This document shows positions 27,229-49,207 of a DNA stretch of 64,000 nt, in pieces; within the stretch, counting starts at the first letter, position 1, and every line of letters begins with the position of its first letter. The stretch comes from an uncultured Actinomycetota bacterium. Its GTDB lineage: Bacteria; Actinomycetota; Actinomycetes; Streptosporangiales; Streptosporangiaceae. A program made the translations under genes and the position numbers. The notes beneath the pieces were generated by a model, which searched no databases, had not been told where the DNA came from, and saw only the letters and a program-made list of their open reading frames with translations. The DNA is taken from positions 298,767-362,766 of the forward strand of contig CAVYDE010000008.1 in the NCBI GenBank assembly GCA_963767215.1. The letters run 5' to 3'.

Positions 27229-27555
27229 TCAGCCAGATCCGGCTGGCTCCGGCCAGCTGCGCCGGTCCGGCTTCGCCAGCGGCCAGCCGCCCGCCGCGAG
27301 CCTCGACTTGACCCTGGCGATGTCGGAGTCGCTGGCCGTTGCATGGGTGACCGTCTTGATCGCCTCGCGGATCGCGTCGGCCGAATCGGGGTCGACACTG
27401 CTGGCCAGTTCCTCGGCGATCGTGCTGACGTCCGCATCGCTCAGCTGGCTGCCGAGCAAGGAGAACAGCGGGAGGTAGTCGACCCGTGGTACCCCCTCCG
27501 GGTACCCGGCCCGCAGCCAGCCGATGATCGAGCTGAGGAATGCGGACATCTCCAT
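27229..27555 (-). CDS. DUF3349 protein (M. tuberculosis Rv0543c-like), copy B
   Basis: MEMSAFLSSIIGWLRAGYPEGVPRVDYLPLFSLLG. RBS GGAAGGAG. Paralog of 28210..28506. Confidence 0.75.
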   Translation of the reverse strand: MEMSAFLSSIIGWLRAGYPEGVPRVDYLPLFSLLGSQLSDADVSTIAEELASSVDPDSADAIREAIKTVTHATASDSDIARVKSRLAAGGWPLAKPDRRSWPEPAGSG

Positions 27556-27583
27556 GCTGAGCTCCTTCCGGTACCGGCCGCGA

Positions 27584-27868
27584 TCACTTGGCGTGCGGGT
27601 GGCCCGCCTGGTAGATGGCGACGAGGCCCCATCCGATCGGGGCCAGCACGACCAGGAAACACAACCCGCCGGCAATCATGCCAGCAATGCTGCCGCCGAC
27701 CAGGGTGTCGGAAGTCTCGCCATCGGTCCCGGCGGTCGCTGCGCGCGCGCCGCCGGCCCGGCTGAGCGCCAGCATGCCGATCGCGAACAAGGCGGGCAGC
27801 CCCGCGCCGGCGATGAGGCCGACCACGACGATCTGCCAGAGTGCAGTCAGGTTAATCCAGGAGTTCAC
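27584..27868 (-). CDS. small two-TM membrane protein (Rv0544c-like), copy B
   Basis: VNSWINLTALWQIVVVGLIAGAGLPALFAIG... Paralog of 28552..28809 (MNSWINFRAIWEIVVIGLLAGAGLPAIFAIG). GTG start 27868. Confidence 0.6.
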   Translation of the reverse strand: MNSWINLTALWQIVVVGLIAGAGLPALFAIGMLALSRAGGARAATAGTDGETSDTLVGGSIAGMIAGGLCFLVVLAPIGWGLVAIYQAGHPHAK

Positions 27869-27887
27869 GGCTGTGCCGTCCTCTCGG

Positions 27888-28105
27888 TCAGGCCGCGGCC
27901 GGCTCGCGGGCCCCGGCAACGGACGGCGGAGCTACCGATCCTGTCCACTCCTCATTCACGTTGTCGTGGCCGACCCGGCTGCCACGAGAGCGCAGGTAGA
28001 TAGTCGTGGCGACCGCGATCAGCAGCACGAGATCGACGACGATGCCCGCGTCGCCGCCGATGATGTGGGCGAGGTAGTAGGCGCCCGCACCGGCAGGGGC
28101 ACGAT
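27888..28105 (-). pseudogene. 3'-terminal remnant of a second pit (phosphate transporter) copy
   Basis: Minus-strand translation PAGAGAYYLAHIIGGDAGIVVDLVLLIAVATTIYLRSRGSRVGHDNVNEEWTGSVAPP aligns with the Pit C-terminus GATSYFIANAIGGTLGIMVVLLILIGVSGVIYWRSRGTRVGPQNVNADWTGSVAPA. No upstream coding part remains. Confidence 0.6.
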
Positions 28106-28209
28106 CTAGCCGTAGGACTCACCAACTCCAGCCGCCAACAGTGCTCACCCGCCAGCGGGCTCAGCGACCATCCTCACCGAACCACCCGGCCGAGGACGCT
28201 CGATCGCTA

Positions 28210-28506
28210 TTAGCCGCCCGGCCCGGCAAGCGGCCAGCCGCCGGCGGCGAGCCGTGACCGGACCCTGGAGATATCACTGTCGCGCGGGTGCTCGTTAGTG
28301 ACAGCGTTGATCGCCGCATGGATAGTCGCCGCGTCGTGCTGGTCGCAGCTGTCTGCCAGTTCGTCGGCGATCTCCTTGACCTCCTCGTCGGTGAGGTGCC
28401 TGCCGAGCAGCGCGAACAGCGGGATGTAGTCGACATCAGGTACGCCTTCTGGGTACCCGGCCCTGAGCCAGCCGATGATGTCGGTCAGAAACGATGGCAA
28501 TGGCAT
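28210..28506 (-). CDS. DUF3349 protein (Rv0543c-like), copy A
   Basis: MPLPSFLTDIIGWLRAGYPEGVPDVDYIPLFALLGRHLTDEEV. Confidence 0.8.
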   Translation of the reverse strand: MPLPSFLTDIIGWLRAGYPEGVPDVDYIPLFALLGRHLTDEEVKEIADELADSCDQHDAATIHAAINAVTNEHPRDSDISRVRSRLAAGGWPLAGPGG

Positions 28507-28551
28507 GTGCGGAGATCCTCTCGGGCCCGGCTCCTTCTGCGGCCGGGCCGG

Positions 28552-28809
28552 TTACTTGTGGCCGGTGGCGACGATGATGTAGATGCCGTAGCCGACGGCG
28601 GCCAGCACCACTGCGAAGCACACAGCGGCGATGGCCACCCCGGCCGGGCTTCCGCCGACCACCTCGTCGTCGGACCCGGTGACGTGACCCTTGCCCGGCG
28701 CGCCGAGAACGCGGATGCCGATGGCGAAGATCGCCGGAAGCCCGGCCCCGGCCAGCAGGCCGATGACGACGATCTCCCAGATGGCCCTGAAGTTGATCCA
28801 TGAGTTCAT
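28552..28809 (-). CDS. small two-TM membrane protein (Rv0544c-like), copy A
   Basis: 85-aa ORF with two hydrophobic helices, 32 nt downstream of pit. Confidence 0.65.
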   Translation of the reverse strand: MNSWINFRAIWEIVVIGLLAGAGLPAIFAIGIRVLGAPGKGHVTGSDDEVVGGSPAGVAIAAVCFAVVLAAVGYGIYIIVATGHK

Positions 28810-28841
28810 TGCTCGCCCCCGTTTCTGCCGGGACCTGCTCG

Positions 28842-29996
28842 TCAGGCGGCCCTGCTGGTGACCGCCGGGTCGGCCGGCGCGACCGAGCCCGTCCAGTCGG
28901 CGTTGACGTTCTGCGGGCCGACCCTGGTGCCACGCGAGCGCCAGTAGATGACGCCGGATACGCCAATCAGGATCAGCAGGACGACCATGATCCCGAGCGT
29001 CCCGCCAATCGCGTTCGCGATGAAGTAGCTGGTAGCGCCCATGATTCCGGACGCGGGCAGCGTGATCAGCCAGGCAGTCGCCATCCTGCCCGCTACGTTC
29101 CAGCGCACCTCGGCGCCCCGCTTGCCGAGGCCGCAGCCGAGGATCGATCCGGTAGCCACCTGGGTGGTGGACAGCGAGTAGCCGAAGTGGGTAGACAACA
29201 AGATGATCGCCGCCGATGACGACTCGGCGGCCATGCCCTGCGGCGACTCGATCTCGACCAGGCCCTTACCCAGGGTCCTGATGACCCGCCAGCCGCCCGC
29301 GTAGGTGCCGGCCGCGATCGTGAGCGCGCAGATCACGATGACCCACAACGGCGTGCTCGCCCCGGCGGTCAGCGTGTGGTTGGCGATCAGGGCCAGCGTG
29401 ATGATGCCCATCGTCTTCTGGGCGTCATTGGTGCCGTGCGCCAGCGACACCAGGGATGCCGACCCGATCTGGCCGATGCGGAAGCCGCGATTGCGGCTGC
29501 CCTCGCGCATCGACCTGGCGATCCGGTAGATCAGGTACGTGCCGGTGGCGGCGACGAGCGCGGCGATGAACGGCGACAGGATCGCCGGGATGACTACCTT
29601 GGACACCAGGCCCTGCCACTTCACCGCGTGAGATCCGGCCGCGGCGAGCATGGCGCCGATCACCCCGCCGATCAGCGCGTGCGAGGAACTGGACGGGATG
29701 CCGAACAGCCAGGTGATGAGGTTCCAGACGATGGCGCCGGCCAGGCCGCCGAACACCACGGTCAGCGTCACCAGGCCGGTATCTACCAGGCCGCTGGCGA
29801 TCGTCGCGGCGACGCTCAGCGACAGGAACGCGCCGATCAGATTGAGCACCGCGGACAGGCCGACCGCGACCCTCGGGCCGAGCGCTTTGGTGGCTATGGA
29901 CGTCGCCATGGCGTTGGCCGTGTCGTGGAATCCGTTAGTGAAGTCAAACGACAAGCCGGTGATGATGACCAGCGCGAGGACGATGTCGTTGCTCAC
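28842..29996 (-). CDS. pit: inorganic phosphate transporter, PiT family
   Basis: LSFDFTNGFHDTANAMATSIATKAL and a second GTNDAQKTMGII repeat, the signature PiT motifs. GTG start after AGGAAGGG. Confidence 0.9.
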   Translation of the reverse strand: MSNDIVLALVIITGLSFDFTNGFHDTANAMATSIATKALGPRVAVGLSAVLNLIGAFLSLSVAATIASGLVDTGLVTLTVVFGGLAGAIVWNLITWLFGIPSSSSHALIGGVIGAMLAAAGSHAVKWQGLVSKVVIPAILSPFIAALVAATGTYLIYRIARSMREGSRNRGFRIGQIGSASLVSLAHGTNDAQKTMGIITLALIANHTLTAGASTPLWVIVICALTIAAGTYAGGWRVIRTLGKGLVEIESPQGMAAESSSAAIILLSTHFGYSLSTTQVATGSILGCGLGKRGAEVRWNVAGRMATAWLITLPASGIMGATSYFIANAIGGTLGIMVVLLILIGVSGVIYWRSRGTRVGPQNVNADWTGSVAPADPAVTSRAA

Positions 29997-34899: not shown

Positions 34900-36303
34900 T
34901 CAGCGCGCCGGCGGCAGTCCGGCGTCGCCGCCGCGGCCGCCCTGCCCGGCACCGCCCTGCCGGGCACCGCCAGGGCCGAATCCGCCAGGGCCGAATCCGC
35001 CCAGGCCGTCGTCGGCACTCCCGAGCTGGTCTTGGTCAACGCCCGGCTCGAGGGCCTGCTGTCCGGGACGATCCGGCTGGCCTGTGTAGTCGTTGTCGCC
35101 GACGGACTGCAGCACCGGGACCGATTCGCCGATGTTCGGCTTCGCGCTGCCCCTGCGGTGCAAGGCAGCGGCAATCGCCGGGTAGAGCAGCACGGAAATT
35201 ACTCCGGCGCCGACCAGCGCGGCCGCGTTCGCGGGCAGCATGACGCCGTCTTGCTGACCGATCGTGGCCAGCGCGATCAGCAGCGGCATCGTGGTGGCGG
35301 TGATGAACGTCATCTCCAGCCGCTGCCGGAACGACAGCAGCCTGACGTAGATGAGCAGCGACGGCAGCCCGCGGACCACAAGCAGCAGGCCGGCGAACAC
35401 CAGCAGCCGCACCGGATCGGCGGCAATGGAGTGAATGTCCAGCCCCATGCCGGATACCACGAAGAACAGCGGGATGAAGATGCCGTAACCGACAGCTTCG
35501 AGCTTGTCCTCCAGCGGCTTGACGTCGACTTCCATCTTGTGCGTCCAGCTGCGCAGCACCATTCCGGCCAGCATCGCGCCGAGCACGACATCGAGGCCGA
35601 ACTTCTCGGCTGCGACCAGCAGGACGAGCAGCAGCACCAGCGACCAGCGCAGCGTGCTCTGCGCGGTAGCTCGCTGGCCTTGTTTGATCACCGCCTTGAG
35701 GCGGCGTTCACCGATGATCCGCGGTGCCGCGGTCAGCAACAGCGCGGCAGCGGCTACCGCGAGCAGTGAGGCGAGGGCCACGAACTGGCTGCGCTTGGTC
35801 AGGAACAGGGAGATGGCGATGATCGGGAACAGTTCGCCGACCGCCCCGGCGGCGAGCACGTACCGGCCGAACTTGCCGCCGAGCATGTCGTTGTCATGCA
35901 GGATCGGGAGCAGCGTGCCGAGCGCCGTCGTGGTCAGTGCGAGTCCGATCGGGACGAAGTCCCGGATGTAGTGGAACGCGGACAAACCGGCCACGGCGCC
36001 GACCGCGAGGGCTGCGCTGACCGCCCAGCCGATCATGGCCACCCGGCCGGATTGCTCGCGGAACAGCCGCGGATCAAGTTCATAGCCGGCCAGCAGGAAC
36101 AGGAAGCCGAGGCCGATGTTCGACAGCAGTTCGAGGCTGCCGGTGTCGGCCAGGCCGAGCACGTGCGGTCCGATCAAGATGCCAGCGAAGATCAGCACGA
36201 CGACTTGCGGGATCTTCGGGCCGGGCAGTACGGCGACGACGGCAGGCGCAAGCGCCGCGACGATCGCGACCGCCAGCAGGCTCTCCAGGCCCTTGGCGTC
36301 CAT
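34900..36303 (-). CDS. cation:proton antiporter (CPA family Na+/H+ or K+/H+ exchanger)
   Basis: IPQVVVLIFAGILIGPHVLGL...SNIGLGFLFLLAGYELD, about 12 TM helices, Gly-rich C-terminal tail. Confidence 0.85.
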   Translation of the reverse strand: MDAKGLESLLAVAIVAALAPAVVAVLPGPKIPQVVVLIFAGILIGPHVLGLADTGSLELLSNIGLGFLFLLAGYELDPRLFREQSGRVAMIGWAVSAALAVGAVAGLSAFHYIRDFVPIGLALTTTALGTLLPILHDNDMLGGKFGRYVLAAGAVGELFPIIAISLFLTKRSQFVALASLLAVAAAALLLTAAPRIIGERRLKAVIKQGQRATAQSTLRWSLVLLLVLLVAAEKFGLDVVLGAMLAGMVLRSWTHKMEVDVKPLEDKLEAVGYGIFIPLFFVVSGMGLDIHSIAADPVRLLVFAGLLLVVRGLPSLLIYVRLLSFRQRLEMTFITATTMPLLIALATIGQQDGVMLPANAAALVGAGVISVLLYPAIAAALHRRGSAKPNIGESVPVLQSVGDNDYTGQPDRPGQQALEPGVDQDQLGSADDGLGGFGPGGFGPGGARQGGAGQGGRGGDAGLPPAR

Positions 36304-37505
36304 CAGCCAAGCCCGAGCGCGTCTGGGCGCAGGTACGCGGCGGCGACGCCGAGCTCCGCCGACTGCCGGAGCAACGCGTCGCGGCGGGACTGGACGGCAG
36401 GTCGCAGCTCGGGCTCGATGAACCGCACCTGGCCACGCCCGTCGGCGTAATAGCCCGTCGGGCGCGTGCTGGCCGCGATCCGCCGGAGGATGTCCTCGAG
36501 CCGGTCGATGACCTGGACGGCGGTGGTCGGCTGATTGATCGCCGGCGAGAGCGCCTGGATGGCGATGTCGACGAGCTGCCGGATCCCGTAGGCAGGGTCC
36601 TGGTACAGCGTCCGGCTGCGGCCAAGGTCCAGCCCCGCCGAGACCGTCCTTGCCGTGCGGAGAGCGTAGTGGCCTGGCCCAGGCGTAGCGGCCGCGCGGT
36701 ACTCGACGATGACGTCAGACCCCGCCTGCACGTACTCGCCGACGCGGACCAGCAGCCGCAGGACGCAATCGTGCCGTTGCGCGAACCTGACAAGCCGGTC
36801 ATGGTCGACGCCCTGCAGGACGCCGGCAGTCCGGCCGCGGCCGGTCATCGCGATCCGGCGCTGCTGGCCATCCAGGCGCGGCGCACTGGTCAGCTGGTAG
36901 AGCCGGGGCCTCTGGTAATTAAGGGCAATCGCCTTCAGCGTCCGGCTCGCGACATCGCTGATCACCCAGGCGACCTGCAGCAGCCGCACGGTGGAGGCGA
37001 CATAGCCGACGAATACCAGCAGGCTGATCGCTACCAGTACCACCGCGATAGCCAGCCCGCGCGACTCAGGCTCGTGCCCGTGCCCGCCCGCCAGCACCAG
37101 AAAGGCGACCGAGTAGGCGAACGTGGCCAGCAGTATGCCGAAGGCCAGCTTGGTGACGCCTGAGCGGATGAAGGTGCGCAGCACCCGCGGCGACGCCTGT
37201 GAACTGGCGAGCTGCAGCGCGACCAAGGTCAGGGTGAAGACGACGCCGAGAAAGGTCAGCGTGGCCGAGGCGATGATGCCGAGCACGCTGGCAGCTTCGC
37301 CGGAGGCGACTGGCGGGCCGGTGGGCAGCAGCGCCTTGATGCCAAGCTCCGGCGCGTACACAGTTGCCGCCGCGATCAGGCCGCCGCCGACCAGAAACAC
37401 GGTCGGGACTGGCCAGAAGCTGTCCGCAAATCGCTCGCGCGCCCACGCCAGCCGGTAATTGCTGGCTGCCGCTGGGCGCAGTGCGAAGACCTGCGAAGGC
37501 ATCAC
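36303..37505 (-). CDS. DUF2254 family membrane protein
   Basis: Four N-terminal TM helices plus a soluble domain with YQDPAYGIRQLVDIAIQALSPAINQPTTAVQVIDRLEDIL. Its stop overlaps the antiporter start. Confidence 0.75.
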   Translation of the reverse strand: MMPSQVFALRPAAASNYRLAWARERFADSFWPVPTVFLVGGGLIAAATVYAPELGIKALLPTGPPVASGEAASVLGIIASATLTFLGVVFTLTLVALQLASSQASPRVLRTFIRSGVTKLAFGILLATFAYSVAFLVLAGGHGHEPESRGLAIAVVLVAISLLVFVGYVASTVRLLQVAWVISDVASRTLKAIALNYQRPRLYQLTSAPRLDGQQRRIAMTGRGRTAGVLQGVDHDRLVRFAQRHDCVLRLLVRVGEYVQAGSDVIVEYRAAATPGPGHYALRTARTVSAGLDLGRSRTLYQDPAYGIRQLVDIAIQALSPAINQPTTAVQVIDRLEDILRRIAASTRPTGYYADGRGQVRFIEPELRPAVQSRRDALLRQSAELGVAAAYLRPDALGLG

Positions 37506-37701
37506 GTGCGCTCAGTTCCCCCGTGCCGTGCCCGCCGCCAGCCCCGTGCAAGCAGCGCGTCATCGCCAGCCACCCGGAGTGCGGGACGCGGCGGTCTGGT
37601 CAGGATGCCCAGTTCGGCGGCTTACTACTCGCCGACAGCGAACCGGGCTCGGCGGTTGCCCCAGGCCAGCAGGTCCGCTGACACCTCATCCGCTAGCTCG
37701 T

Positions 37702-37743
37702 GGGAGTGACCTGGGTGCTGCTCCAGCAGCACCCAGGTCACTC
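37702..37743. terminator. 42-nt near-perfect palindrome (20-bp arms)
   Basis: GGAGTGACCTGGGTGCTGCT-CC-AGCAGCACCCAGGTCACTCC, 44 nt past the stop (37787) of the secreted repeat protein gene. Confidence 0.5.
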
Positions 37744-37786
37744 CGATCATGCCTTCAGACCTCTAGTTCAGTTACTGCCGGCTAGG

Positions 37787-38902
37787 TCAGCCGTTGAAAT
37801 GGTGCAGGAAGATCCTGCCGTCGGTGCGGGAGACGTTGGCCAGCGTGCCGTGAACCAGCGCCGGGCCGAGCGTCGTGGTGTTGTTGTTGGCGTTGACGAA
37901 CCGGTGCGCGCTCCATACGCCCGCGCTCAGGGTCTGGAAGCGGATGAAATCTCCGCCCGGGCCCTTGTAGGCCAGCAGCAGCGGACCGTCGCCGTGGATG
38001 TCAGCCGACGCGACTGCCGGGCTGCCCGTGGTTCCGGCCAGGCCGGTGCCATCCTGCACTGGCCCCGCCGCCAGCGTCCACGGTACGGACGCGTTGCCGG
38101 TCAGGCCGACGCCCTGGTTGTCGGGCGTGGTGGCGTAGTTGATCGGCTCGGCGGCTGCCTTTCCCTTCTCCTTCCAGAACACATATACGGTGCCGGTGCT
38201 GCCGTTCAGGATCTCGGTCAGGGCTGGCTGAGAACCGGTCTCGGCACTCGTCGCGCCGTTAACCCACGCCGACTTGACCTTCTTGGTGCCCCAGGTAAAC
38301 CTGCGGCCGTTCGGGCCGGCCTCGGTGCCGATCTCGATCCTGACGTGGTCGAAGGGACCGCGGTAGGCGATGATCACTCGGGCGTTGAGGGCGTTCGCCG
38401 GGAACAGCACAGCCGGCGAGGCCGATGTCTCAGAGAACTTGCCGCCTGGCATCACAACCGGTGACGTCCAGCTGATCTTGCCGTTGTTGGCGACGATGCC
38501 GTCGGAATACTTGATCGTGCTCAGGCCGCCGTTCTTGCCGATCGACTTCCAGGCGACAAACACGGCCTCCTTGCCCTTGTTAGTCGCGAACAGAGCCGCG
38601 GTCGGCGAGGTGTTGGTGGAAGCGCCGTGGATGACCTCGGTCGGGAACCACTTGCCGTCGAGCCTGATCTTGTACTTCACGCGGTTGTCGAACTGGCCCT
38701 TCCAGGCAAGGAAAGTGCCCTGCAGGCCGTTCACGTCAATGGCGGACAGTGCCGGGGTCGTGTTGGTGAATGCGTTAGGGACCGCCGGGTTGTGTTTGGA
38801 CCAGGGCGGCGTGGGTGCCGCCAGAGCTGCACCTGCCGCGGCAAGGGCACAGACCGTGCCCGCAGCGGTAGCAGCAGCTACCAGCCTGGACTTCGGGAGC
38901 AT
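37787..38902 (-). CDS. secreted protein with six ~55-60-aa internal repeats, unknown family
   Basis: Signal peptide MLPKSRLVAAATAAGTVCALAAAGAALAAP. Repeats are marked by PAL/PAV...(F/I/L)(L/V)AWKG / AYRGP / FWKEKG / AYKGPG motifs. Confidence 0.7.
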   Translation of the reverse strand: MLPKSRLVAAATAAGTVCALAAAGAALAAPTPPWSKHNPAVPNAFTNTTPALSAIDVNGLQGTFLAWKGQFDNRVKYKIRLDGKWFPTEVIHGASTNTSPTAALFATNKGKEAVFVAWKSIGKNGGLSTIKYSDGIVANNGKISWTSPVVMPGGKFSETSASPAVLFPANALNARVIIAYRGPFDHVRIEIGTEAGPNGRRFTWGTKKVKSAWVNGATSAETGSQPALTEILNGSTGTVYVFWKEKGKAAAEPINYATTPDNQGVGLTGNASVPWTLAAGPVQDGTGLAGTTGSPAVASADIHGDGPLLLAYKGPGGDFIRFQTLSAGVWSAHRFVNANNNTTTLGPALVHGTLANVSRTDGRIFLHHFNG

Positions 38903-39160
38903 CGCAGATCCTCACGTTCTTGTAGGTCGGTGAACCTGCCGCAGCTGCGGGAGGCAACCAGCACGCTAGGCCAGCAAGGCCCGGGATCGGCACAGATAGC
39001 CTAGGACTTAGCTGGGTTTTTCCTGTGTGCGTATCCGGCGGCTGATCATCAGCCCTAGTCACCGGCCTGGCCAGGCTGGCGGGTCGCAGCCGGCGGCAGG
39101 CACCCGCACCTGCATGATGGATCCCGTGTCATCGCCGACGGCCGGACGGGGAGTGCTCTG

Positions 39161-40891
39161 ATGGCTGTCTCGCCGACATTTCCCAGCCGGGAGAACCTGG
39201 GCAGGCTGAGATTCCGGCCGCTGGACATCGCCGTCGGGCTGTCCGTCGTGCTGCTGATCTACGCGGTGGTGCGGGTGGGCGCCGGCGCCAGGGCGCCAGC
39301 GGAGTCGGCGACGACGCTCAATATCTCGCCGTCTAACCTGCCGTATTACGCCGCGCGCAGCCTGCTGCGGATGTTCATCGCGCTGTTTTTCTCTTACGCC
39401 TTCAGCCTCAGCTATGCCTACGTAGCGGCGCGCAGCAGGCGCTGGCGGCGGGTGCTGATCCCGGCCCTCGACATCCTGCAGTCGGTGCCCGTGCTCGGCT
39501 TCCTCGCGATCACCGTGACCTTTTTCGTCACGATCTTCCCGCACTCTGAGCTCGGCCTGGAGTGCGCCGCGATCTTCGCGGTGTTCACCTCGCAAGCCTG
39601 GAATATTACGTTTTCCTTCTACCACTCGCTGATCAGCCAGCCGGCCGAGTTCAACGAGGCCAGCAAGCTCATGGGGCTGTCGAGATGGAAGCGGTTCTGG
39701 ACTGTCGATGTGCCCGGCGGCGCGATCGGTCTGGTCTGGAACGGGATGATGAGCTTCGGCGGCAGCTGGTTCTTCCTGACCGCGTCCGAGCTGATCATGG
39801 TGAACGGCCGCAGGCTGACCCTGCCGGGAGTTGGCTCCTACGTCGGGACCGCGGAGCGGGAGGGCAATCTGGCCGATGTCGTGTGGGGCATCGTCACGAT
39901 GATCATCGTGATCCTGGTAGTCAACTTCTTCTTCTGGCGCCCGCTCGTCGCGTTCGTGGAAAAGTTCAGGGTCGAGCAGTCGGAGTCCAGCCAGCGGGCC
40001 AAGTCGCTGGTGCTCAACGCCCTCCGCAGGTCCAACTGGCAGGCCACAGTCGGCCGGGGCAAGCGAGCCGTCGCGCAGCCGATCAACCGGCTGATGGCGC
40101 GAGCAACCGGCATCGATGACACGAGCCTGGCCAGTCACGCCAGCCGCCGCCGGGCCGCCGACATCACCTTCACGGTCGTGCTCACCGCTGCGCTCGGCTA
40201 CGGCCTGTACAGCATGCTGGCCTTCGTCGCGACCGGCAGCCAGGGTCTCGGCATCTTCGGCACGACCTTCTACCTTGGTTTCCTGACCTTCCTGCGCGTG
40301 GTCGTGGTCGTGACCGTCGCATCGGTCCTGTGGGTGCCGGTTGGCGTGTGGATCGGCTTCAATCCGCGGGTGGCGCAGTTCATGCAGCCCATCGTGCAGG
40401 TGCTGGCCAGCTTCCCGGCCAACTTCATCTTTCCGTTCGCGATCGTTGTCTTCCTCGATCTCGGCATCAGCCTGAATTACGGCGCCATCTTGTTGATGAT
40501 GCTGGGCACGCAGTGGTACGTGCTGTTCAACGTCATCGCTGGCGCGAGCGCGGTGCCGTCGGACCTGAGAGAAGCGATGGACAACCTGGGCGTGCGCGGC
40601 CTTGACCGGTGGCGGCGGCTGATCCTGCCGGCCATCTTCCCCGCGTACGTGACCGGTGCGATCACCGCGGCGGGCGGTGCCTGGAACGCGACGATCGTGG
40701 CCGAGATCGTCTATTACAACCACAAGACACTGGCCGCCAAGGGCCTCGGCGCCTTCATCGCCCAGAAGACCGGCCACTTGCCCGAGTTGTTCGCCGGCCT
40801 GCTGGTCATGGCCTTTTACGTGACAGGACTCAACGCGCTGCTGTGGCGGCGGCTGTACAAGCTGGCCGAGACGAAGTTCTCCCTCACGTGA
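39161..40891 (+). CDS. ABC transporter duplicated (fused) permease, NitT/TauT-like anion type
   Basis: 576 aa with two permease halves, each with an EAA-type loop (EASKLMGLSRWKRFWTVDVP and EAMDNLGVRGLDRWRRLILP). Confidence 0.85.
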   Translation: MAVSPTFPSRENLGRLRFRPLDIAVGLSVVLLIYAVVRVGAGARAPAESATTLNISPSNLPYYAARSLLRMFIALFFSYAFSLSYAYVAARSRRWRRVLIPALDILQSVPVLGFLAITVTFFVTIFPHSELGLECAAIFAVFTSQAWNITFSFYHSLISQPAEFNEASKLMGLSRWKRFWTVDVPGGAIGLVWNGMMSFGGSWFFLTASELIMVNGRRLTLPGVGSYVGTAEREGNLADVVWGIVTMIIVILVVNFFFWRPLVAFVEKFRVEQSESSQRAKSLVLNALRRSNWQATVGRGKRAVAQPINRLMARATGIDDTSLASHASRRRAADITFTVVLTAALGYGLYSMLAFVATGSQGLGIFGTTFYLGFLTFLRVVVVVTVASVLWVPVGVWIGFNPRVAQFMQPIVQVLASFPANFIFPFAIVVFLDLGISLNYGAILLMMLGTQWYVLFNVIAGASAVPSDLREAMDNLGVRGLDRWRRLILPAIFPAYVTGAITAAGGAWNATIVAEIVYYNHKTLAAKGLGAFIAQKTGHLPELFAGLLVMAFYVTGLNALLWRRLYKLAETKFSLT

Positions 40892-40904
40892 AAGGCACCC
40901 GGCC

Positions 40905-43900
40905 ATGAGCGGCCCGGCGACCTCGCGGACGGCGCTGCCGCCGGCTCCGGCGACGCCGCTGATCAGCGTGCGGTCGCTGAGCAAGTCGTTCGCCGGGCCT
41001 GGCGGCCGGCCGATACCGGTGCTCGACGAGATCAACCTGGACGTCGCCGAAGGCGAGTTCGTCGCGCTGCTCGGCCGTAGCGGCAGCGGCAAGTCCACGC
41101 TGCTGCGGTGCATCGCGGGTCTGATGGCACCGACCGAGGGGGAGGTGCGGTTCCGCGGCCGCCGGCTGACCGGCACGAACCGGGAGACCTCGATGGTCTT
41201 CCAGACCTTCGCGCTGATGCCCTGGCTGACCGTGCAGCAGAACGTGGAACTGGGGCTGGAAGCGCGCGGCGTGGCCACCGACGAGCGGTCAGAGCGCGCG
41301 CTGCGCGCCATCGACATCGTCGGCCTCGACGGTTACGAGTCGGCCTACCCCAAGGAACTGTCCGGCGGAATGCGGCAGCGCGTGGGCTTCGCCAGGGCGC
41401 TGGTGGTCGAGCCGGCCGCGCTGCTGATGGACGAGCCGTTCAGCGCGCTGGACGTGCTGACCTCGGAAAACCTGCGCGGTGAACTGCTGGAGCTATGGGA
41501 GGGCCGCAAGTTCCCCACCAAGACCATCGTGATGGTCACCCACAACATCGAGGAGGCGGTGCTGCTCGCCGACCGGATCCTGGTGCTCGGCACCAACCCT
41601 GGCCGGATTCGGTCCGATATGGTCAACCCGCTGCCTCGGCCACGGCGGCGCCGTACGCCGGAATTCGACGAGCTGGTCGACCAGATCTACCGGATGATGA
41701 CCAAGCGCGACCAGCCAGACGAGCAGCCGGCCGCGCCCGGCAGCTCAGGCCCGGCCGGCACCATCGGCGACACGCCATTGCCGCAGGCCACCGTCGACGG
41801 CCTGTCCGGGCTGGCCGAGATCCTGCTGGCCCGGCACGGCGGCGCGGCCGACCTGGCCGATCTGGCCGACAGCCTCGGTCTCGAGGTCGACGACCTGCTG
41901 CCGCTCGTGGACGCGCTGCTCCTGCTCGGCTTCGCCGATCTGCGCGACGACAGGCTCGAGCTTTCGGCGAATGGCCGGATCTTCGCGGGCGCCAGTATCC
42001 AGGACTCCAAGGAAATCTTCGCCAGGGCGGCCCTTGACCATGCGCCGCTGGTGCGCACCATCTACCGCAGCCTGCGCGGCAGCATGGACGACACGCTGCC
42101 GGCCGGCTTCTTCACCGACATCCTGCGCACCAGCTTCGGCGAGGAGGAGGCGGCCCGCCAGCTGGATGTCGCGGTGAACTGGGGCCGGTATGCCGAGCTG
42201 TACGACTACGACGCCGCCCGCGGCCAGATCATCAGGGAAGAGCAGGGCATCGGCGCGACGATGGCCGATGCGCCAGGGCCTGCCAAGCGGGGTTCTCTGG
42301 TGGTGTACCTCGGCGCGGCGCCCGGCTCCGGCAAGACGTTCACCATGCTGAAGGAAGGCCGGGCGCTGCGAGCCCAGGGTGAGGACGTGGTGATCGGGTT
42401 CGCCGATGCCCGCGGCCGCGGGCACACCGAGGAGGCGGTCGGCGGGCTGGAGGTCGTGCCGCCCAAGCTCGTCGAGTCCGGCCGGCACGGCGCAGAGCAG
42501 GCGGAAATGGACCTGGCCGCGGTGCTGGACCGGCATCCCGCCGTGGCTCTGGTCGACGATCTCGGCATGCACTCCGCCGCGATCGAAGCGCTGCGCAGTG
42601 CCGGGATCCACGTCATCAGCACGGTAGACGTGACCGACGTCGCAAGTACGGCAGCGGACGTGGCGGCGGTCACGGGGGAGCCGGCCGCCGGCACCGTCAC
42701 CGACGCCGTGCTGGACGGCGCAGACGCGCTGCAGTTCGTCGACAGCTCACCGGAGGCACTGCGCAAACGGCTCGGCCACGGCAACATCTACCCGCCGGCC
42801 AAGGTGGATGCCGCCATGCGGACGCAGTTCCAGCCGGCCAGGCTCGCCGCGCTCCGCGAAATCGGCCTGCGGCTGGTCGCGCAGAGCGTGCCGGCGCCCG
42901 GCGCCACCCGCCAGCGCGGTGCGCAGGACGTGCTGGTCGCGGTCTGGCGGCCGGAACAGGTCGACTCCCTCGTGCAGCGCGGCATGCGACTTGCCAGGCG
43001 CCGGGGCGCGCGTTGCTGCGTGCTGGTGCTGAGCCAGCAGAGCCCGGCCGCGACGGCACTCACCGAGCGGGTCGAGGCGGCCGCCGCTGTGGCTGGCGCC
43101 TCTGTCGTGATCAGGGAGAGCCGTGACGCAGGCGCCGCGATCATCTCCGCGGTGCAGGAGCTGAACGCGCGGCATCTGGTGCTCGCCGTGCCGCCGGCCG
43201 GCCTGCTCGAGCGCTTTCGCGGCTCGCTGCTCGAGCGGCTGGCTGGTCAGCTGCCCGGCGTGCACCTGCACATCGAGGCCGCCGCGAGCGGGCTCGATCA
43301 TGATATTTCCGGGAACGTGGCCGAGCCGGCCGGTAGTCAGCCCCGGCGCAGCCGCGGCGCGATCAGGGTCTACCTGGGGTACGCGCCCGGCTGCGGGACG
43401 ACGACCGCGATGCTGGCAGAGGCGGGCAGGCGGCGGGCACGCGGCAGTGATGTCGTCGTCGGCGCCATCGATGCGCGGGACCGCGAAGACGTCACCTCAG
43501 AACTCGAGCATCTCGAGATCATCGGCGACGGCGTCACCCTGGACACCGCCGCGGTACTTGCCAGGCGGCCCGAGGTCGTGTGCGTCGATGACCTGACCGA
43601 GGGCACGTCGTCGGCCGAACGCAGATTCGTCGCGGCCAGACGGCTGGCCGATGCCGGCATCACGGTGGTCGGCACGGTCCAGCTCGGCAAGCTCGGCAGC
43701 ACGCCGGCCGGGGGCCCTGCCGCGTTCCTCGACGAGCAAGCACTGCTGGCGCTGGCAGACGAGATAGAACTGGTCGACGTGCCGCCGTCGATCCTGGTCG
43801 ACCGGGTGCGGCGCGGGGAGATCGTGCCCGCCGACCAGATCACCGAGGCGCTGGAGACGACCTACGATCCCGGCACCCTCAGCGCCGAGCGGGAGCGCGC

Positions 43901-44366
43901 ATTCCGGCTGGTAGCCGAGCACGGTGAGCGGCGGCTTGCCGCCTACGAAGGCGACGACCAGCCGACCAGGTCGGGGCTGAGCGGGCAGGAGCGGCCGCCG
44001 TCGATTCTGGCCTGTGCTGCGCCGTGGCCAGGGATGGAGCTGCTGATCCGGCGCTCCGCCGCGCTGGCTGCGCAGGTAGACGGCGTCTTCCAGGTCGCGG
44101 CGGTGCGGCTGTCGCAGCCGGGTACCGAGGAAGACCAGCTGCTGGCGTCCTACGCGGCACTGACCGAGCAGCTCGGCGGTGTCTTCATCGCGCTGGCGGG
44201 GACATCATCGGCGGCCGCGCTGGCCGACTACGCCAGCGGGCATCAGGTCACCGAGCTGGTGCTCACCAGAGCGGAGCCGAACCCGGCCGGGCGGTACCCG
44301 GTGCTGCGCGAGCTGGTAAGGCTGGCCAGGGACGTGGAACTGCACGTACTGCCGGCCGCGCGCTGA
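40905..44366 (+). CDS. ABC transporter ATP-binding protein fused to an AAA-associated domain and two KdpD-N/Usp-like sensor modules
   Basis: Walker A GRSGSGKST, LSGGMRQR, LLMDEPFSALD, VTHNIEEA (aa 1-265). Helical domain at aa 290-445. VVYLGAAPGSGKTFTML...LVDDL...STVDV...RLGHGNIYP...ALREIGLR (aa 462-662) plus a Usp-like block. RVYLGYAPGCGTTTAML... second module (aa 817-1012) plus a Usp-like block. Confidence 0.85.
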   Translation: MSGPATSRTALPPAPATPLISVRSLSKSFAGPGGRPIPVLDEINLDVAEGEFVALLGRSGSGKSTLLRCIAGLMAPTEGEVRFRGRRLTGTNRETSMVFQTFALMPWLTVQQNVELGLEARGVATDERSERALRAIDIVGLDGYESAYPKELSGGMRQRVGFARALVVEPAALLMDEPFSALDVLTSENLRGELLELWEGRKFPTKTIVMVTHNIEEAVLLADRILVLGTNPGRIRSDMVNPLPRPRRRRTPEFDELVDQIYRMMTKRDQPDEQPAAPGSSGPAGTIGDTPLPQATVDGLSGLAEILLARHGGAADLADLADSLGLEVDDLLPLVDALLLLGFADLRDDRLELSANGRIFAGASIQDSKEIFARAALDHAPLVRTIYRSLRGSMDDTLPAGFFTDILRTSFGEEEAARQLDVAVNWGRYAELYDYDAARGQIIREEQGIGATMADAPGPAKRGSLVVYLGAAPGSGKTFTMLKEGRALRAQGEDVVIGFADARGRGHTEEAVGGLEVVPPKLVESGRHGAEQAEMDLAAVLDRHPAVALVDDLGMHSAAIEALRSAGIHVISTVDVTDVASTAADVAAVTGEPAAGTVTDAVLDGADALQFVDSSPEALRKRLGHGNIYPPAKVDAAMRTQFQPARLAALREIGLRLVAQSVPAPGATRQRGAQDVLVAVWRPEQVDSLVQRGMRLARRRGARCCVLVLSQQSPAATALTERVEAAAAVAGASVVIRESRDAGAAIISAVQELNARHLVLAVPPAGLLERFRGSLLERLAGQLPGVHLHIEAAASGLDHDISGNVAEPAGSQPRRSRGAIRVYLGYAPGCGTTTAMLAEAGRRRARGSDVVVGAIDARDREDVTSELEHLEIIGDGVTLDTAAVLARRPEVVCVDDLTEGTSSAERRFVAARRLADAGITVVGTVQLGKLGSTPAGGPAAFLDEQALLALADEIELVDVPPSILVDRVRRGEIVPADQITEALETTYDPGTLSAERERAFRLVAEHGERRLAAYEGDDQPTRSGLSGQERPPSILACAAPWPGMELLIRRSAALAAQVDGVFQVAAVRLSQPGTEEDQLLASYAALTEQLGGVFIALAGTSSAAALADYASGHQVTELVLTRAEPNPAGRYPVLRELVRLARDVELHVLPAAR

Positions 44367-44388
44367 TCGGGCTGGCCGGCCTGGCGTC

Positions 44389-45836
44389 TTACAGGCCGGA
44401 CACCGCCACCACGCCGGTCATGGTGCCGATGAGCAGCAGGTTGCCGGACAGCGACGGCGACACGAAATGCGGGAGGGCGCCGCGGAGGGCGATCTTCTCC
44501 CGGACTGCGCCGGTCGCCGGGCTGAGCTCGTACAAGGTGCCGGAGTTCCAGTCGGCCACCCAGACGGCACCGCCGCCGACGGCTGGCGATCCCCATGCCC
44601 CGGCGGCCCGTGCCACAGCACGCGCAGGCCGTTGCCCGCGGTGTCGACCGCGGCCAGCCCGGCCGGATAACACGGCACGAACACGACGCGGCCGCTGACC
44701 GCGGCGCCGCCGAAGGCCGAGCAGACGCTGCCCTGGCTGACCTGCCCGCCGACGCCGCCAAGGTGGCCGGCATTGAGCAGGTAGCCCACGCCGCTCTTGC
44801 CGACCTGCAGGATCTGCCCGTCGGCCAGCAGCGCCGGGGACATCGAGCCGAGGTCCAGATCCGCGGCGCTCAGCATGCGCCAGTCGGCCGGGGCGAAGAT
44901 CGCCGATTCCGTCAGCTTCGGAGTCAGCGCGGTCACCGAGTCGCTGCCGTCAAAGGTCTTGGCTGCCGCCGCGCCGTTACCTGTGCTGACATAAATCGTG
45001 CCGCCGGGGCCGACCACCGGACCACCGGAGGCCCAGATGCCGGCCTGCTCGGCGGTCGGGACCTCGTAGGAGACGATCGGGCCGCGGCCGCTGGCCGGCA
45101 TCCCGACGACCGTGCCGCGGTAGGGGCCGCAGTCCCCGTAGTGCCCGCCGAAGACCACGTAGACCCGGCCGTGAGCGAGCGTCAGCGCGCCGCGCTGCTG
45201 ATCGTAAGCGGGCTGGGCATCGGGCGACGGCACCAGCCCGGTGACGGCGATCTTGCCGTCACTGATCCGCAGCCCAGCGAACACGTGCCCGGTCTTGCCG
45301 GACTGGGCGACGACGTAGACCAGCTTGTCCCGCGGGTCATACACCGGCGTGCTGGTGATGCCGAGCGGGTTGAGATTGCCGCAGGGCTGCTGGCCGATCG
45401 GCAGCGGCGTGCCGACCCTGGTCTGCCAGCGGACGGCCCCGGTGGCCCGGTCCAGGGCGACTACCTCGTCTGCCGAGGTCGCGGCGATCACGGTCTGGCC
45501 GATGACCAGCGGCTGGCCATAGACGACCGCGCCGAGGCGACGCGACCATTGCACCGCGAGCCGTCCGGCCGCCGGCAAGCCAGCCACATTCCCGGTTCTG
45601 GCCACGTTCCCGTGGTAGGTAAACCAGTCGGTCGGCTGCGCCGACCCTGACGTGCTCGCCGGGCCCGGGGCGGTGGGCGCGGCCGAGTTTGCCGGGCTGG
45701 GCGGCGGTGTGACCGACGTCGCCGGGCCGGACGGCGCCGCGGCCTGGCTCGAGCAGCCGGTGGCTAAGCCGAGCAGCACCACCGCCGCGACGGCAGCGCG
45801 CTGCCTTTGCCTGGAGCTAGTGCGCACGGTCTGCAT
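44389..45836 (-). pseudogene. PQQ-like beta-propeller lipoprotein, one frame change near 44608
   Basis: MQTVRTSS...LLGLATGCSS lipobox. Repeats such as VVALDRATGAVRWQ. The C-terminus AAGAWGSPAVGGGAVWVADWNSGTLYELSPATGAVREKI is in the frame of ORF 44389..44673. Confidence 0.7.
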
Positions 45837-45881
45837 GGTGCCAGTCTGCACGCGCCCCGGTCTGCACGGTGCCAGTCTGCA
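45828..45881. repeat. two 24-nt direct repeats spaced 30 nt start to start
   Basis: ggtctgcatggtgccagtctgcac (45828-45851) and ggtctgcacggtgccagtctgcac (45858-45881), with a partial third copy (aggtctg) after. The first copy overlaps the start codon of the beta-propeller gene. Confidence 0.6.
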
Positions 45882-45953
45882 CCAGGTCTGTCGGCCCCGC
45901 GGCCAGCGCGCCAGGGTAGGGTCGGCCGTGGCGCACTCTGCTTGCGAGAGGTT

Positions 45954-46673
45954 ATGACAAATCAGGACGAAAAGGTACCTGGCTACACCGCCGTACCAGC
46001 GGTCGGCCAGGCCGGGCCCGCCGATTCGCTTGGCGGGCAGATCCTGACCATCCCGAACCTCATCAGCTTGGCCAGGTTGCTCGGCGTGCCGGTGTTCCTG
46101 TGGCTGGTGCTGGGCGTGGACTCCACGACCGGCGACTGGTGGGCCGTCGGCCTGCTCATGGCCTCGGGATTCTCCGACTGGCTGGACGGCAAGATCGCCA
46201 GGGCGCTGAACCAGCAGAGCAGGCTCGGCCAGTTGCTGGACCCGGCCGCGGACCGGCTCTATATCGTCGCCACCCTGATCGCGCTGGCTGTGCGCTCGAT
46301 CATCCCGTGGTGGCTCGTCGGGCTGCTGGCGGCCAGGGAACTGCTGATGGCAGTGGTGCTGTGGCTCGTGCGGCGCAAGGGCTGGGGCGCGCTGCAAGTG
46401 AGCTTCGTCGGCAAGACGGCCACCCTTTGCCTGCTGTACGCGTTTCCGCTGCTCTTTCTGGGTTCGCACGTTGCCGGTTACGCGGAGACTGCAAGGGTGG
46501 CCGGTTGGACCTTCGTTATCTGGGGAAGTGCCCTGTACTGGTGCGCTGCTCTGCTGTACATCGCGCAGGCTCGGCGCTTGCTGGCCCTGGCCCCGGCCCT
46601 GACCCTGGTGAGCCAGGCGCAACGGGACTGTCGGCAGGTGAGAACGGCGGGTAACAGCAGCGGGCCTGGCTAG
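45954..46673 (+). CDS. CDP-alcohol phosphatidyltransferase (PgsA / eukaryotic-type cardiolipin synthase family)
   Basis: [28 protein letters not shown] equals the DGx2ARx8Gx3Dx3D motif. Start at ATG 45954 inside ORF 45807..46673. Confidence 0.85.
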
Positions 46674-46708
46674 GCCGCGGTGAGCGGCAGGAGAGGAGAA
46701 CGGCGTCC

Positions 46709-49207
46709 GTGAAGGCTGTGGTGATGGCGGGCGGCGAGGGCACCAGGCTGCGCCCGATGACGGCCAATCAGCCCAAGCCAATGCTGCCCGTGGTGAACCG
46801 GCCGATCATGGAGCACGTGCTGCGACTGCTGCGCCGCCACGGCCTGACCGAGACCGTCGTTACCGTCCAGTTCCTCGCCTCGATGGTGCGCAACTATTTC
46901 GGCGACGGCGAAGACTTCGGCATGAGCCTGCAGTACGCCACCGAGGAGACGCCGCTCGGCACCGCCGGCAGCGTCAAGAACGCCGAGGACGCGCTGCGGG
47001 ACGAGCCGTTCCTGGTGATTTCCGGTGATGCGCTGACCGATTTCGACCTGTCCGACTTGATCAATTTCCATAAGGACAACAACGCGATGGTGACCGTCGC
47101 GCTGGCCAGGGTCCCTGACCCGCTCGAGTTCGGCATCGTCATCGTGGACGACGACGGCAAAATCCAGCGGTTCCTGGAGAAGCCGACCTGGGGCCAGGTG
47201 TTCTCCGACACCGTGAACACCGGCATCTACGTGATGGAGCCAGAAGTGCTCCAGCACGTCCCGGCCGGCCAGGTGGTCGACTGGTCCGCCGATGTGTTCC
47301 CCAAGCTGCTGGAGAACGGCGCGCCGCTGTTCGGCTGGATCGCAGACGGCTACTGGGAGGACGTCGGATCGCACGAGAGTTACCTCAAGGCGCAGGCCGA
47401 CGTGCTGACCGGCAAGGTCAACGTGCAGATCGACGGTTTCGAGGTGTCGCCGGGCGTCTGGGTCGCCGACAGCGCCGAGGTGGACCAGGACACCGTGCTG
47501 ACCGGGCCGTTGTGCATCGGCGACTACGCCAAGATCGAGGCTGGCGCGCAACTGCGCGAGTTCACCGTCATCGGCAGCAACGTCATCGTCAAGGAAGGTG
47601 CCTTCCTGCACCGGGCGATCGTGCACAACAACGTGTACATCGGCCGCGGTGCCACCCTGCGCGGCTGCGTGGTCGGCAAGAACACCGACGTGATGAGCCA
47701 GGCCAGGATCGAGGAAGGCGCGGTCGTCGGGGACGAGTGCGTGATCGAGCCCGACAGCTATGTGTCGGCCGGGGTCAAGGTCTACCCGTTCAAGACCATC
47801 GAGGCCGGCGCGGTCGTCAACACCAGCGTCATCTGGGAATCGCGCGGGCAGCGCACGCTGTTCGGCCCGCGCGGCGTATCCGGCCTCGTCAACGTGGAGA
47901 TCACCGCGGAACTCTGCGTCCGGCTGGCCAGCGCCTACGCGACCACGCTGAAGAAGGGCTCGGTCGTGACCACCTCGCGCGACGCGTCCCGCGCGGCCAG
48001 GGCGCTGAAGCGTGCTGTGCACGGCGCGCTGAATGCCAGCGCGATCAACGTGGTCGACCTCGAGGCACAGCCGATGCCGCTGGCCAGGTTCGAGACCGCG
48101 CGCAGCGACTGCAGCGGCGGGATCGCGCTGCGCACTACGCCGGGCGACCCGCAGTCGCTGGACATCATCTTCATGGACTCCGATGGCGCGGACCTGTCCC
48201 AGTCGGCACAGCGCAAGCTGGAGCGGGTGTTCTCCCGGCAGGAGTACCGGCGTGCCTTCCCTGGCGAGATCGCCGAGCTGTCCTATCCGCCCAGGGTGAT
48301 CGAGGCCTACACGCATGAATTGCTGCGGTCGGTCGATATGACGGGCGTGTCCGGCGCCGGACTGCGGGTAGTCGCCGATTGCGCGGGCGGCACCACGTCA
48401 CTGGTCCTGCCAGGCCTGCTCGGCAAGATCGGCCTCGACGTGCTGACGGTGAACAACCGGCTCGACGAGGCTTCGCCCACCCAGTCGGTGGCCGCGGTCC
48501 GAGCTGACATGCACAGGCTGGCCGAGCTGGTGTCCTCGTTCGGGGCAGCATTCGGCGTCAGGTTCGATCCGGTGGGCGAGCGGATCGCGCTGGTGGACGA
48601 CAAGGGCTCGATGGTCAGCGACGACCGGGCCCTGCTGGTAGTGCTGGACCTGATCGCAGCGGAGAAGCGCGGCGGCCGGGTCGCACTGCCCGTCACGACC
48701 ACCAGGGTGGCCGAGGAAGTCAGCCGGTTCCACAACGTTCAGGTGGACTGGACGCCGACGTCGCTCCACAGCCTGTACGAGGCGGCGGCGAACCCGGACA
48801 TGATCTTCGCCGCCGACGGCAAGGGCGGCTTCATCGTGCCGGCCTTCTCCCGCTCCATCGACGGGATCGCGGCGTTCGCGCAATTGCTCGGCCTGGTCGC
48901 GCGTACCAGGCTGACGCTCAGCCAGATCGAGGCCAGGATCCCCGAGGCCAATCTGCTCAAGCGCTCGCTGCCCACGCCCTGGGCGGCCAAGGGCATGGTC
49001 ATGCGCACGGTCGTCGAGGCCGCCGGAGACAAGCAGATCGACACCACCGACGGGGTCAGGGTCATCGAGGACGGCAAGGGCTGGATCCTGGTGCTGCCCG
49101 ACCCGTCCGACGCAGTCACCCACCTGTGGGCCGAGGGGTCGGACGCGGACACCGCTCAGTCCCTGCTGGACGAGTGGGCAGCCGTCGTTGAGCGGGCCGG
49201 CCGCTGA
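46709..49207 (+). CDS. bifunctional sugar-1-phosphate nucleotidyltransferase / phosphomannomutase-like protein
   Basis: [28 protein letters not shown] nucleotidyltransferase motif, a left-handed beta-helix region, then a phosphohexomutase-like C-terminal half. 832 aa, as in Streptomyces ManB-type proteins adjacent to cardiolipin synthase. Confidence 0.9.

Follow-up and report, generated by a model that had tools for sequence, protein, structure and literature searches.

A KdpD-N/Usp tandem fused to the ATPase subunit of a binding-protein-less ABC transporter in uncultured Actinomycetota

Why would the ATPase subunit of an ATP-binding cassette (ABC) transporter carry, at its C-terminus, two copies of the N-terminal and Usp portions of the sensor kinase KdpD? 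The question is raised by a gene pair in a 64,000-nucleotide (nt) stretch (~68% G+C) of contig CAVYDE010000008.1 from an uncultured Streptosporangiaceae actinobacterium, referred to here as the window; positions are in window numbering unless another locus is named. The pair encodes a duplicated permease and an ATPase subunit of 1153 amino acids (aa), the latter ending in two successive modules that each join a KdpD N-terminal domain (KdpD-N) to a Usp-like domain. The architecture is real and conserved under purifying selection, the tail originates from a tandem protein linked to the Kdp system, and residues required by the KdpD-N kinase have been lost from it. The tail is best read as a built-in module that ties the transporter to the cation or energy state of the cell.

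Architecture and conservation of the fused ATPase

The N-terminal part of the subunit is a NitT/TauT-like ABC ATPase. Pfam matches ABC_tran at residues 40-179 (117 bits), and the Walker A (GRSGSGKST), signature (LSGGMRQR), Walker B (LLMDEPFSALD, with the catalytic Glu) and H-loop (VTHNIEEA) motifs are invariant across 39 homologues. CmpD and NrtD are the closest solved relatives of the ATPase sequence; the top NCBIfam equivalogs, SaoA, TauB and NtrCD, all score under their own cut-offs, and therefore no specific substrate family can be assigned. C-terminal to the ABC domain lies AAA_assoc_C (PF09821; residues 319-436, 119.5 bits, cut-off 27.6), the domain that marks out this ABC subfamily; in a system of Ca. 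Liberibacter asiaticus it was assigned as a predicted winged helix (PMC3688454). The permease gene begins with a GGGGAG ribosome-binding site 6 nt 5' of its ATG and ends 13 nt before the ATPase gene. In type-I ABC importers the EAA loop is the docking site for one ATPase subunit; the two BPD_transp_1 stretches and two EAA loops of this permease (Table 1) therefore identify it as a fused dimer.

At every related locus the permease gene is partnered by the ATPase gene, and at divergent loci only this pair is conserved, so that the two genes form a self-contained unit. No histidine kinase, response regulator or binding-protein gene was found among the neighbours scanned on either side in the window, and neighbour scans of related loci, of fused and sister variants alike, revealed no recurrent substrate-binding-protein gene. 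The cognate binding protein of a binding-protein-dependent type-I ABC importer is therefore missing from the vicinity of the pair both in the window and at related loci, although an orphan gene for it may lie elsewhere in the genome; the locus is a two-gene ABC transporter without binding protein, belonging to the NitT/TauT-like subfamily marked by PF09821.

The remainder of the subunit is related to KdpD. PF02702 (KdpD) matches the protein in two stretches (304 bits), the NCBIfam profile KdpD_non_kinase (NF038185) aligns with residues 460-792 over profile positions 16-371 of 373 (290.8 bits, cut-off 550), and PRK10490 scores 224 against a cut-off of 1123. With both of the latter profiles below cut-off, and no HisKA or HATPase_c domain in a Pfam scan of the 1153-aa protein, the subunit is neither a KdpD sensor histidine kinase nor a KdpD_non_kinase protein; the KdpD N-terminal domain is nevertheless present in the tail by sequence and by fold. 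Modules 1 and 2 are 39% identical over ~200 residues (E 7e-30), and the KdpD N-terminal structure 2r8r matches the tail by sequence at E 2.5e-26. Modelled with AlphaFold from a diverse alignment, residues 455-1153 (predicted local distance difference test, pLDDT, 85; predicted template modelling score, pTM, 0.47) superpose in Foldseek on 2r8r with a template modelling score (TM) of 0.87 and a root-mean-square deviation (rmsd) of 2.1 Å, and one of the modelled Usp-like domains, the output being silent on which of the two, superposes on the c-di-AMP-bound KdpD Usp structure 7ji4 with a TM of 0.83. A full-length model, in which the ATPase domain is poor (pLDDT 65.7, pTM 0.37), served only for the KdpD-N match. 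Matches of the tail model to KaiC (TM about 0.2, rmsd about 19 Å) were dismissed as generic double P-loop similarity.

A sequence-only reading of the window had proposed much of this architecture, and it was borne out in the position and length of both open reading frames (ORFs), in the duplicated permease with its two EAA loops, in the lack of adjacent histidine kinase, response regulator and binding-protein genes, and in the succession of ABC ATPase, AAA_assoc_C domain and two KdpD-N/Usp blocks, on which Pfam, NCBIfam and AlphaFold/Foldseek concur and for which profile and structure checks of residues 460-1153 support the homology; only the gap between the genes, given there as 14 nt, required correction.

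The same reading had raised the concern that the long ORF might be an assembly fusion. An artefactual ORF, in which misassembly or a frameshift had joined separate genes, or a tail surviving as a functionless remnant would be in keeping with the evolutionary rate of the tail, about two to three times that of the ATPase core, but either explanation is refuted by the distribution and conservation of the fusion. Full-length, uninterrupted homologues of the same length and with the same Pfam set form more than 120 independent clusters at 72-85% identity, and the complete fusion turned up at about 64 genome loci (62-93% identity) from different studies when one genome per species was scanned. The P-loop glycines of both modules, the Walker B Asp and many further tail residues are invariant among the fused homologues. 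The ratio of nonsynonymous to synonymous substitution rates (dN/dS) is 0.10 for the ABC domain and 0.11 for PF09821, and spans 0.19-0.30 over the four tail domains, with module 1 at 0.30 and module 2, the lowest of them, at 0.19; the tail is therefore under purifying selection and functional, yet less constrained than the core.

The fusion is confined to a narrow clade of uncultured Streptosporangiaceae-like Actinomycetota. All hosts are metagenome-assembled genomes labelled 'Streptosporangiaceae bacterium' or 'Actinomycetota', and clustering at 50% identity leaves essentially a single full-length representative (P0121). Among 80 metagenome loci gathered with the PF09821 profile, the ~720-residue extension occurs in only five, which are also those that match the PF09821 region of the query best (61-90% identity); in the remaining loci the ATPase stops 5-29 residues past PF09821. 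A further homologue search with the same profile returned mostly short fragments and so yields no census of architectures. 

Origin of the tail and state of its kinase residues

An exhaustive representative search recovered soluble proteins of 700-770 aa (~735) that consist of two KdpD-N/Usp modules and are collinear with residues 461-1151 of the fused subunit at 38-46% identity (for example, P0306 and P0128). The gene for P0306 lies directly 3' of kdpF-kdpA-kdpB-kdpC; a DUF4118-HisKA-HATPase gene occupies the opposite strand. Of 120 such stand-alone proteins, 115 have a GKT P-loop in module 1 and 111 a GTT P-loop in module 2, the same asymmetry as in the fusion (GAAPGSGKT and GYAPGCGTT, respectively), which argues that the tandem was captured as a unit from a Kdp-associated regulator. 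Judging from these alignments, its source was the family of soluble (KdpD-N/Usp)x2 proteins encoded after kdpFABC. The stand-alone proteins, from Dormibacterota- and Chloroflexota-like genomes and themselves uncharacterised, share the two-module layout and the P-loop pattern with the fused tail, but differ in being soluble, in belonging to a kdp operon, in lacking any ABC or PF09821 part and in a module 1 that has the Walker B DE, an RHxKRW loop and NVQHxES. They also represent a 'kinase + pseudokinase' form of split KdpD that is seemingly undescribed.

The KdpD N-terminal domain has been demonstrated to be an atypical serine kinase that phosphorylates KdpB at Ser162, a reaction requiring the Walker A motif, the Walker B residues D109 and E110 and the W39/R190 pair, and c-di-AMP was found to stimulate a short protein of the KdpD/Usp type (Silberberg et al. 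2024, PMC11018627). The fused modules were aligned with E. coli KdpD and with the stand-alone tandem proteins, and residues were counted over 40 orthologues; the E. coli sequence served for register only, and its K37, W39, D109, E110 and R190 agree with the published numbering. Both E. coli KdpD and stand-alone module 1 (DELAH) retain the Walker B Asp-Glu, and they have in common an 'NxPGxRHxKRW' loop and an NVQHxES motif, which are kinase features in our reading of the alignment and are not named in PMC11018627. Fused module 1 reads DDLG at Walker B, has a 10-residue deletion of the loop and carries DVTDVAS for NVQHxES; both fused modules have the loop and NVQHxES motifs replaced, and both window modules read DD instead of Asp-Glu. 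At the position of E110, module 1 has Asp in 36 of 40 orthologues and Glu in none, and module 2 has Asp in 35 and Glu in five. The Walker A Lys of module 1 is present in 22 of 40 orthologues and is Thr in 15 and Ala in three, and in module 2 no orthologue has Lys at this position. Because the Walker A Lys is variable and the Glu is lost, kinase activity is not a conserved function of the tail, and the fused KdpD-N copies look like pseudokinases. The invariant P-loop glycines and Walker B Asp, together with the constraint on module 2, suggest that a binding or structural role has been retained. The sequence-only reading had treated KdpD-N as a sensor module; the homology stands, while a role as sensor only does not fit a domain now proven to be a serine kinase, from whose catalytic features the fused copies fall short.

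That reading had also offered c-di-AMP as a gating signal. The c-di-AMP motif of the Firmicute KdpD Usp domain is (A/G/C)-x-S-x-S-x2-N-(Y/F), located in the beta1-alpha1 loop (PMC8214093). It was found in none of 121 fused homologues, even with a loosened pattern, and gating by c-di-AMP is left without sequence support. The UspFG ATP motif G-x2-G-x9-G-(S/T) occurs in two of the 121 and is missing from the window protein. Recognition of c-di-AMP by the published Usp motif was rejected on these grounds, as was binding of ATP by that of UspFG.

Base ABC family, sister variants and gene neighbourhoods

The base system was flagged in 2012 as a possible novel ABC system, CLIBASIA_02415/02420 of Ca. 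Liberibacter asiaticus (PMC3688454). Like the window system, it has a duplicated permease, an ATPase with C-terminal PF09821 and no binding protein; it differs in lacking the KdpD-N/Usp tail and is functionally uncharacterised too. A literature search found no later characterisation of a PF09821 binding-protein-less system; the earlier statement that duplicated-permease systems of this kind are essentially uncharacterised needs the amendment that their base form had already been noticed.

Sister ATPases carry other domains on the same scaffold. PTS_EIIA_2, with its active-site His present, stands at the C-terminus of P0192 and P0224; MgtE_N stands at the N-terminus of P0132, and MgtE_N with CBS at the C-terminus of P0145. 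MgtE_N, with or without CBS, is the Mg2+-sensing part of MgtE. These variants are likewise two-gene units with a duplicated permease and no binding protein (loci L084 and L165-L168); they share the ATPase and PF09821 scaffold and the possession of an extra cytoplasmic sensor-type domain with the window system, differ from it in domain kind and lineage, and are also uncharacterised.

The nearest unfused orthologues (ATPase about 60% and permease 53-56% identical) belong to Mycobacterium, Mycolicibacterium, Amycolatopsis, Lentzea and Pseudonocardiaceae. In eight of 16 unfused genome loci (L064, L068, L072, L074, L076, L077, L078 and L079) the pair immediately follows mgtA and/or mgtC on the same strand, and four metagenome loci (L100, L102, L104 and L107) show the same linkage. 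The mgtA product, a Mg2+ P-type ATPase, scores 949 bits with TIGR01524 (cut-off 611), and the end of mgtC is only 7 nt from the permease start in L074 and 2 nt in L079. This linkage suggests a low-Mg2+ operon that includes the ABC system. No M-box was found in seven mgtA-linked orthologous loci, and an apparent MgtC-permease fusion in L068 proved to be a frame artefact of ORF calling, mgtC stopping shortly ahead of the permease gene. In about nine Acidobacteria-like loci the PF09821 pair follows pstCAB-phoU. The pst/phoU loci (L099, L115, L123, L127, L129, L130, L151 and related; 56-60% G+C) also have, between pst/phoU and the pair, a conserved multi-pass membrane protein of ~580 aa on the opposite strand, without Pfam match. 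Across the 80 metagenome loci the neighbour census yielded lineage-specific contexts and no universal partner.

The sequence-only reading had called the system 'anion-type'. That label reflects family resemblance only; judged by their context, the domains found fused to this scaffold and its linkage to mgtA-mgtC point to cation (Mg2+/K+) homeostasis over anion uptake. A broader proposal would make the PF09821 subfamily an unrecognised effector of cation homeostasis (Mg2+/K+, possibly Mg2+/phosphate), into whose one ATPase different lineages have plugged different cation-status sensors, namely MgtE_N with or without CBS, a PtsN-like EIIA and, for K+, the KdpD-derived tandem. We regard this generalisation as tentative and on balance doubtful; if it were true, the nearest unfused orthologues would be part of an mgtA-mgtC low-Mg2+ operon.

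Links between the fusion itself and cation genes are sparse. Genes of kdp occur near only one of 69 fused loci searched: at the divergent locus L024, kdpB, kdpC and kdpA (13881-18434 of that locus, minus strand) converge on the 3' end of the fused gene, and ~2.5 kb further lies another, separate ORF (20997-22079, plus strand), for a canonical KdpD-N in which every kinase motif is intact. A CPA2 cation:proton antiporter gene lies divergent and upstream of the ABC operon in the window and recurs at 36 of 63 fused loci; because it is mostly missing at divergent fused loci, it may be inherited synteny of a narrow clade.

Table 1. Features of the fused ABC locus, its window neighbours and a stand-alone relative
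Feature	Position	Strand	Basis or remark
Duplicated (fused-dimer) type-I ABC permease, 576 aa	39161..40891	+	ORF; BPD_transp_1 in two stretches
EAA loop 1 (EASKLMGLSRWKRFWTVDVP, residues 166-185)	39656..39715	+	Regex match
EAA loop 2 (EAMDNLGVRGLDRWRRLILP, residues 471-490)	40571..40630	+	Regex match
ATPase subunit, 1153 aa, with putatively regulatory C-terminal tail	40905..44366	+	ORF, Pfam, NCBIfam, homologues
ABC nucleotide-binding domain, residues 19-270	40959..41714	+	Pfam, motifs
AAA_assoc_C (PF09821) domain: winged helix and helical bundle	41790..42212	+	Pfam; secondary structure from model
KdpD-N module 1, residues 461-662	42285..42890	+	Pfam, alignment; intact P-loop GAAPGSGKT, Walker B DD
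Usp-like domain 1, residues 674-793	42924..43283	+	NCBIfam alignment to residue 792; modelled alternating beta-alpha units
KdpD-N module 2, residues 817-1011	43353..43937	+	Degenerate, nearly invariant P-loop GYAPGCGTT (Lys to Thr), Walker B DD
Usp-like domain 2, residues 1032-1153	43998..44363	+	Module self-comparison, model, Foldseek
Two ABC-type genes (one ABC_membrane + ABC_tran, cydDC-like), cydAB-like cytochrome bd oxidase genes, pyridine nucleotide-disulphide oxidoreductase, two DUF3349, PHO4 (PitA-like) phosphate transporter	19402-29996	-	
CPA2 antiporter gene, then DUF2254 membrane protein gene	34900-37505	-	Stop and start codons overlapping
Secreted protein, 371 aa	37787-38902	-	Signal peptide, no Pfam match; divergent from permease gene
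CDP-alcohol phosphatidyltransferase gene, then 832-aa NTP_transferase + hexapeptide-repeat + phosphoglucomutase/phosphomannomutase fusion	45807-49207	+	
Soluble tandem (KdpD-N/Usp)x2, 734 aa	8001-10205 (L081-L083)	+	Directly after kdpFABC

The secreted protein encoded next to the permease gene was considered as a hidden binding protein and rejected, being repeat-rich, without Pfam match and unlike a NitT/TauT binding protein. Its repeated '...F/V-x-W/Y-K/R-G...' strand-like motifs are suggestive of a beta-propeller, and it is conserved at about 20 related loci. Downstream, the gene pair that begins with the CDP-alcohol phosphatidyltransferase is kept at most fused loci and might, speculatively, serve a phospho-alcohol or compatible-solute pathway. 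The cluster at 19402-29996 consists of ordinary actinobacterial genes with no visible link to the fusion. A permease feature unique to the fused lineage, such as a docking or phosphorylation site, was likewise considered and rejected, the motifs of the inter-half linker being common to unfused orthologues. An Rfam scan of 36000-47000 gave no match at E <= 0.1 to a riboswitch or known RNA element, and control through such a leader element was rejected accordingly. In 38800-44700, a sigma-70 promoter scan found none, and terminator-like matches numbered only five against 1.7 expected, of which four fall inside the permease coding sequence and the fifth in the intergenic region upstream.

Function of the tail and relation to known systems

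How might the tail act? In one uncultured Streptosporangiaceae-like lineage the ATPase subunit captured the soluble tandem as a single unit. The stand-alone tandem of other phyla holds one kinase-competent module and one with a degenerate P-loop; after fusion, module 1 lost catalytic features as well. We propose that one fused-dimer permease docks two copies of the ATPase subunit, and that the ~700-residue tail either contacts the ATPase domains or binds a signal in the cytoplasm, for instance a nucleotide or a cue linked to K+. In both cases it would control the closure of the two ATPase domains, and hence transport, post-translationally. Appended domains act in this manner in OpuA, CmpC/NrtC, MalK and MetN. 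That the tail is a non-catalytic regulatory module controlling closure of the ATPase dimer on a cytoplasmic signal we judge to be evenly poised between right and wrong; action in cis, the nature of the signal and the substrate are what we infer, with a context that hints at a link to cation homeostasis. Gating through covalently attached modules, first put forward by the sequence-only reading, remains the best reading of the locus, the domain parsing having held and c-di-AMP as its signal having fallen away.

Several observations weigh against this proposal. The models give no reliable inter-domain contact, as their pTM values reflect, and action in cis is hence a prediction only; window module 1 keeps a GKT P-loop and the Walker B Asp, so that residual catalysis is possible; with the c-di-AMP and UspFG motifs missing, no ligand can be named; the fused locus L024 adjoins kdpB, kdpC and kdpA, leaving room for action in trans on the Kdp pump; and all hosts are uncultured. 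Alternatively, the tail might be a tethered, active serine kinase whose module 1 phosphorylates the transporter in cis or KdpB in trans under the control of module 2 and Usp, the transporter being switched off by serine phosphorylation as is KdpFABC. In its favour, serine kinase activity has been proven for KdpD-N, with stimulation via Usp in its short KdpD/Usp forms (PMC11018627), module 1 of the window retains not only the G-x5-GKT Walker A and Walker B Asp but also the Arg aligned with R190, the nearest stand-alone relatives have a fully kinase-like module 1 and are encoded beside kdpFABC, and the kdp genes of L024 are directly downstream of the fusion. Such a kinase is nonetheless unlikely, for mutation of E110 abolishes phosphotransfer (PMC11018627) and its equivalent in module 1 is never Glu; deletion or replacement has removed the loop and the QH motif, which E. 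coli KdpD and stand-alone module 1 both preserve; the Walker A Lys has given way to Thr or Ala in 18 of 40 orthologues; and kdp genes are near a single fused locus, L024, which has a canonical KdpD-N ORF of its own.

Signalling might also run outward, the transporter being the sensor and the tail reporting the state of transport or substrate by protein contact to another partner, for instance KdpFABC or a CPA2 antiporter. KdpD-N is natively a KdpB-docking domain (PMC11018627), the divergent CPA2 gene would supply a partner in the window and in the 36 of 63 fused loci, and module 2, as the most constrained tail domain, would fit a conserved binding surface; set against this are the absence of CPA2 from most divergent fused loci, where its pattern looks like narrow-clade synteny, the lack of any partner conserved over all fused loci and the lack of a precedent that we could find in this ABC subfamily. 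We consider outward signalling distinctly improbable, and return to the tail as a non-catalytic regulator of its own ATPase.

No paper in our literature search describes KdpD-N/Usp fused to an ABC ATPase, in agreement with the earlier claim that the architecture is undescribed, nor the stand-alone tandem; in databases the protein goes by no more specific name than 'AAA-associated domain-containing protein' or 'NitT/TauT family ATP-binding protein'. The locus presents a KdpD-derived serine kinase module that has moved as a tandem onto an unrelated ABC transporter and been stripped of catalytic residues. Nature would here have converted a bacterial serine kinase into a regulatory pseudokinase module and given an ABC ATPase a regulatory appendage of a new kind. 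The locus also gives a handle on a widespread binding-protein-less ABC subfamily that has stood uncharacterised since it was flagged in 2012; the fused-domain set and the mgtA-mgtC linkage in cultivable orthologues (Mycolicibacterium, Amycolatopsis) turn the 'anion-type' label into a testable hypothesis of cation homeostasis.

The tail resembles the KdpD N-terminal and Usp region, including that of the short Deinococcus geothermalis KdpD (PMC11018627), in fold, in PF02702 and in the G-x5-GKT spacing of module 1. In contrast to KdpD, it is a tandem duplicate on an ABC ATPase, the catalytic Glu and the loop are gone, and it has no transmembrane, GAF or DHp-CA part and no Firmicute c-di-AMP motif.

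MalK, MetN and ModC are ATPases with a C-terminal regulatory domain. OpuA carries tandem CBS domains on its ATPase and is gated by ionic strength and c-di-AMP (PMC7673798), and the CmpC/NrtC ATPases carry a binding-protein-like regulatory domain (for CmpC, PMC13287603). In all of these systems, as proposed here, a sensor domain appended to the ATPase gates transport post-translationally; the tail described here is of another kind, is much larger (~700 aa, four domains) and belongs to a system with no binding protein. Appending a regulatory domain to an ABC ATPase is a well-known principle; the novelty lies in which domain was appended, how large it is, where it came from and its apparent pseudokinase state.

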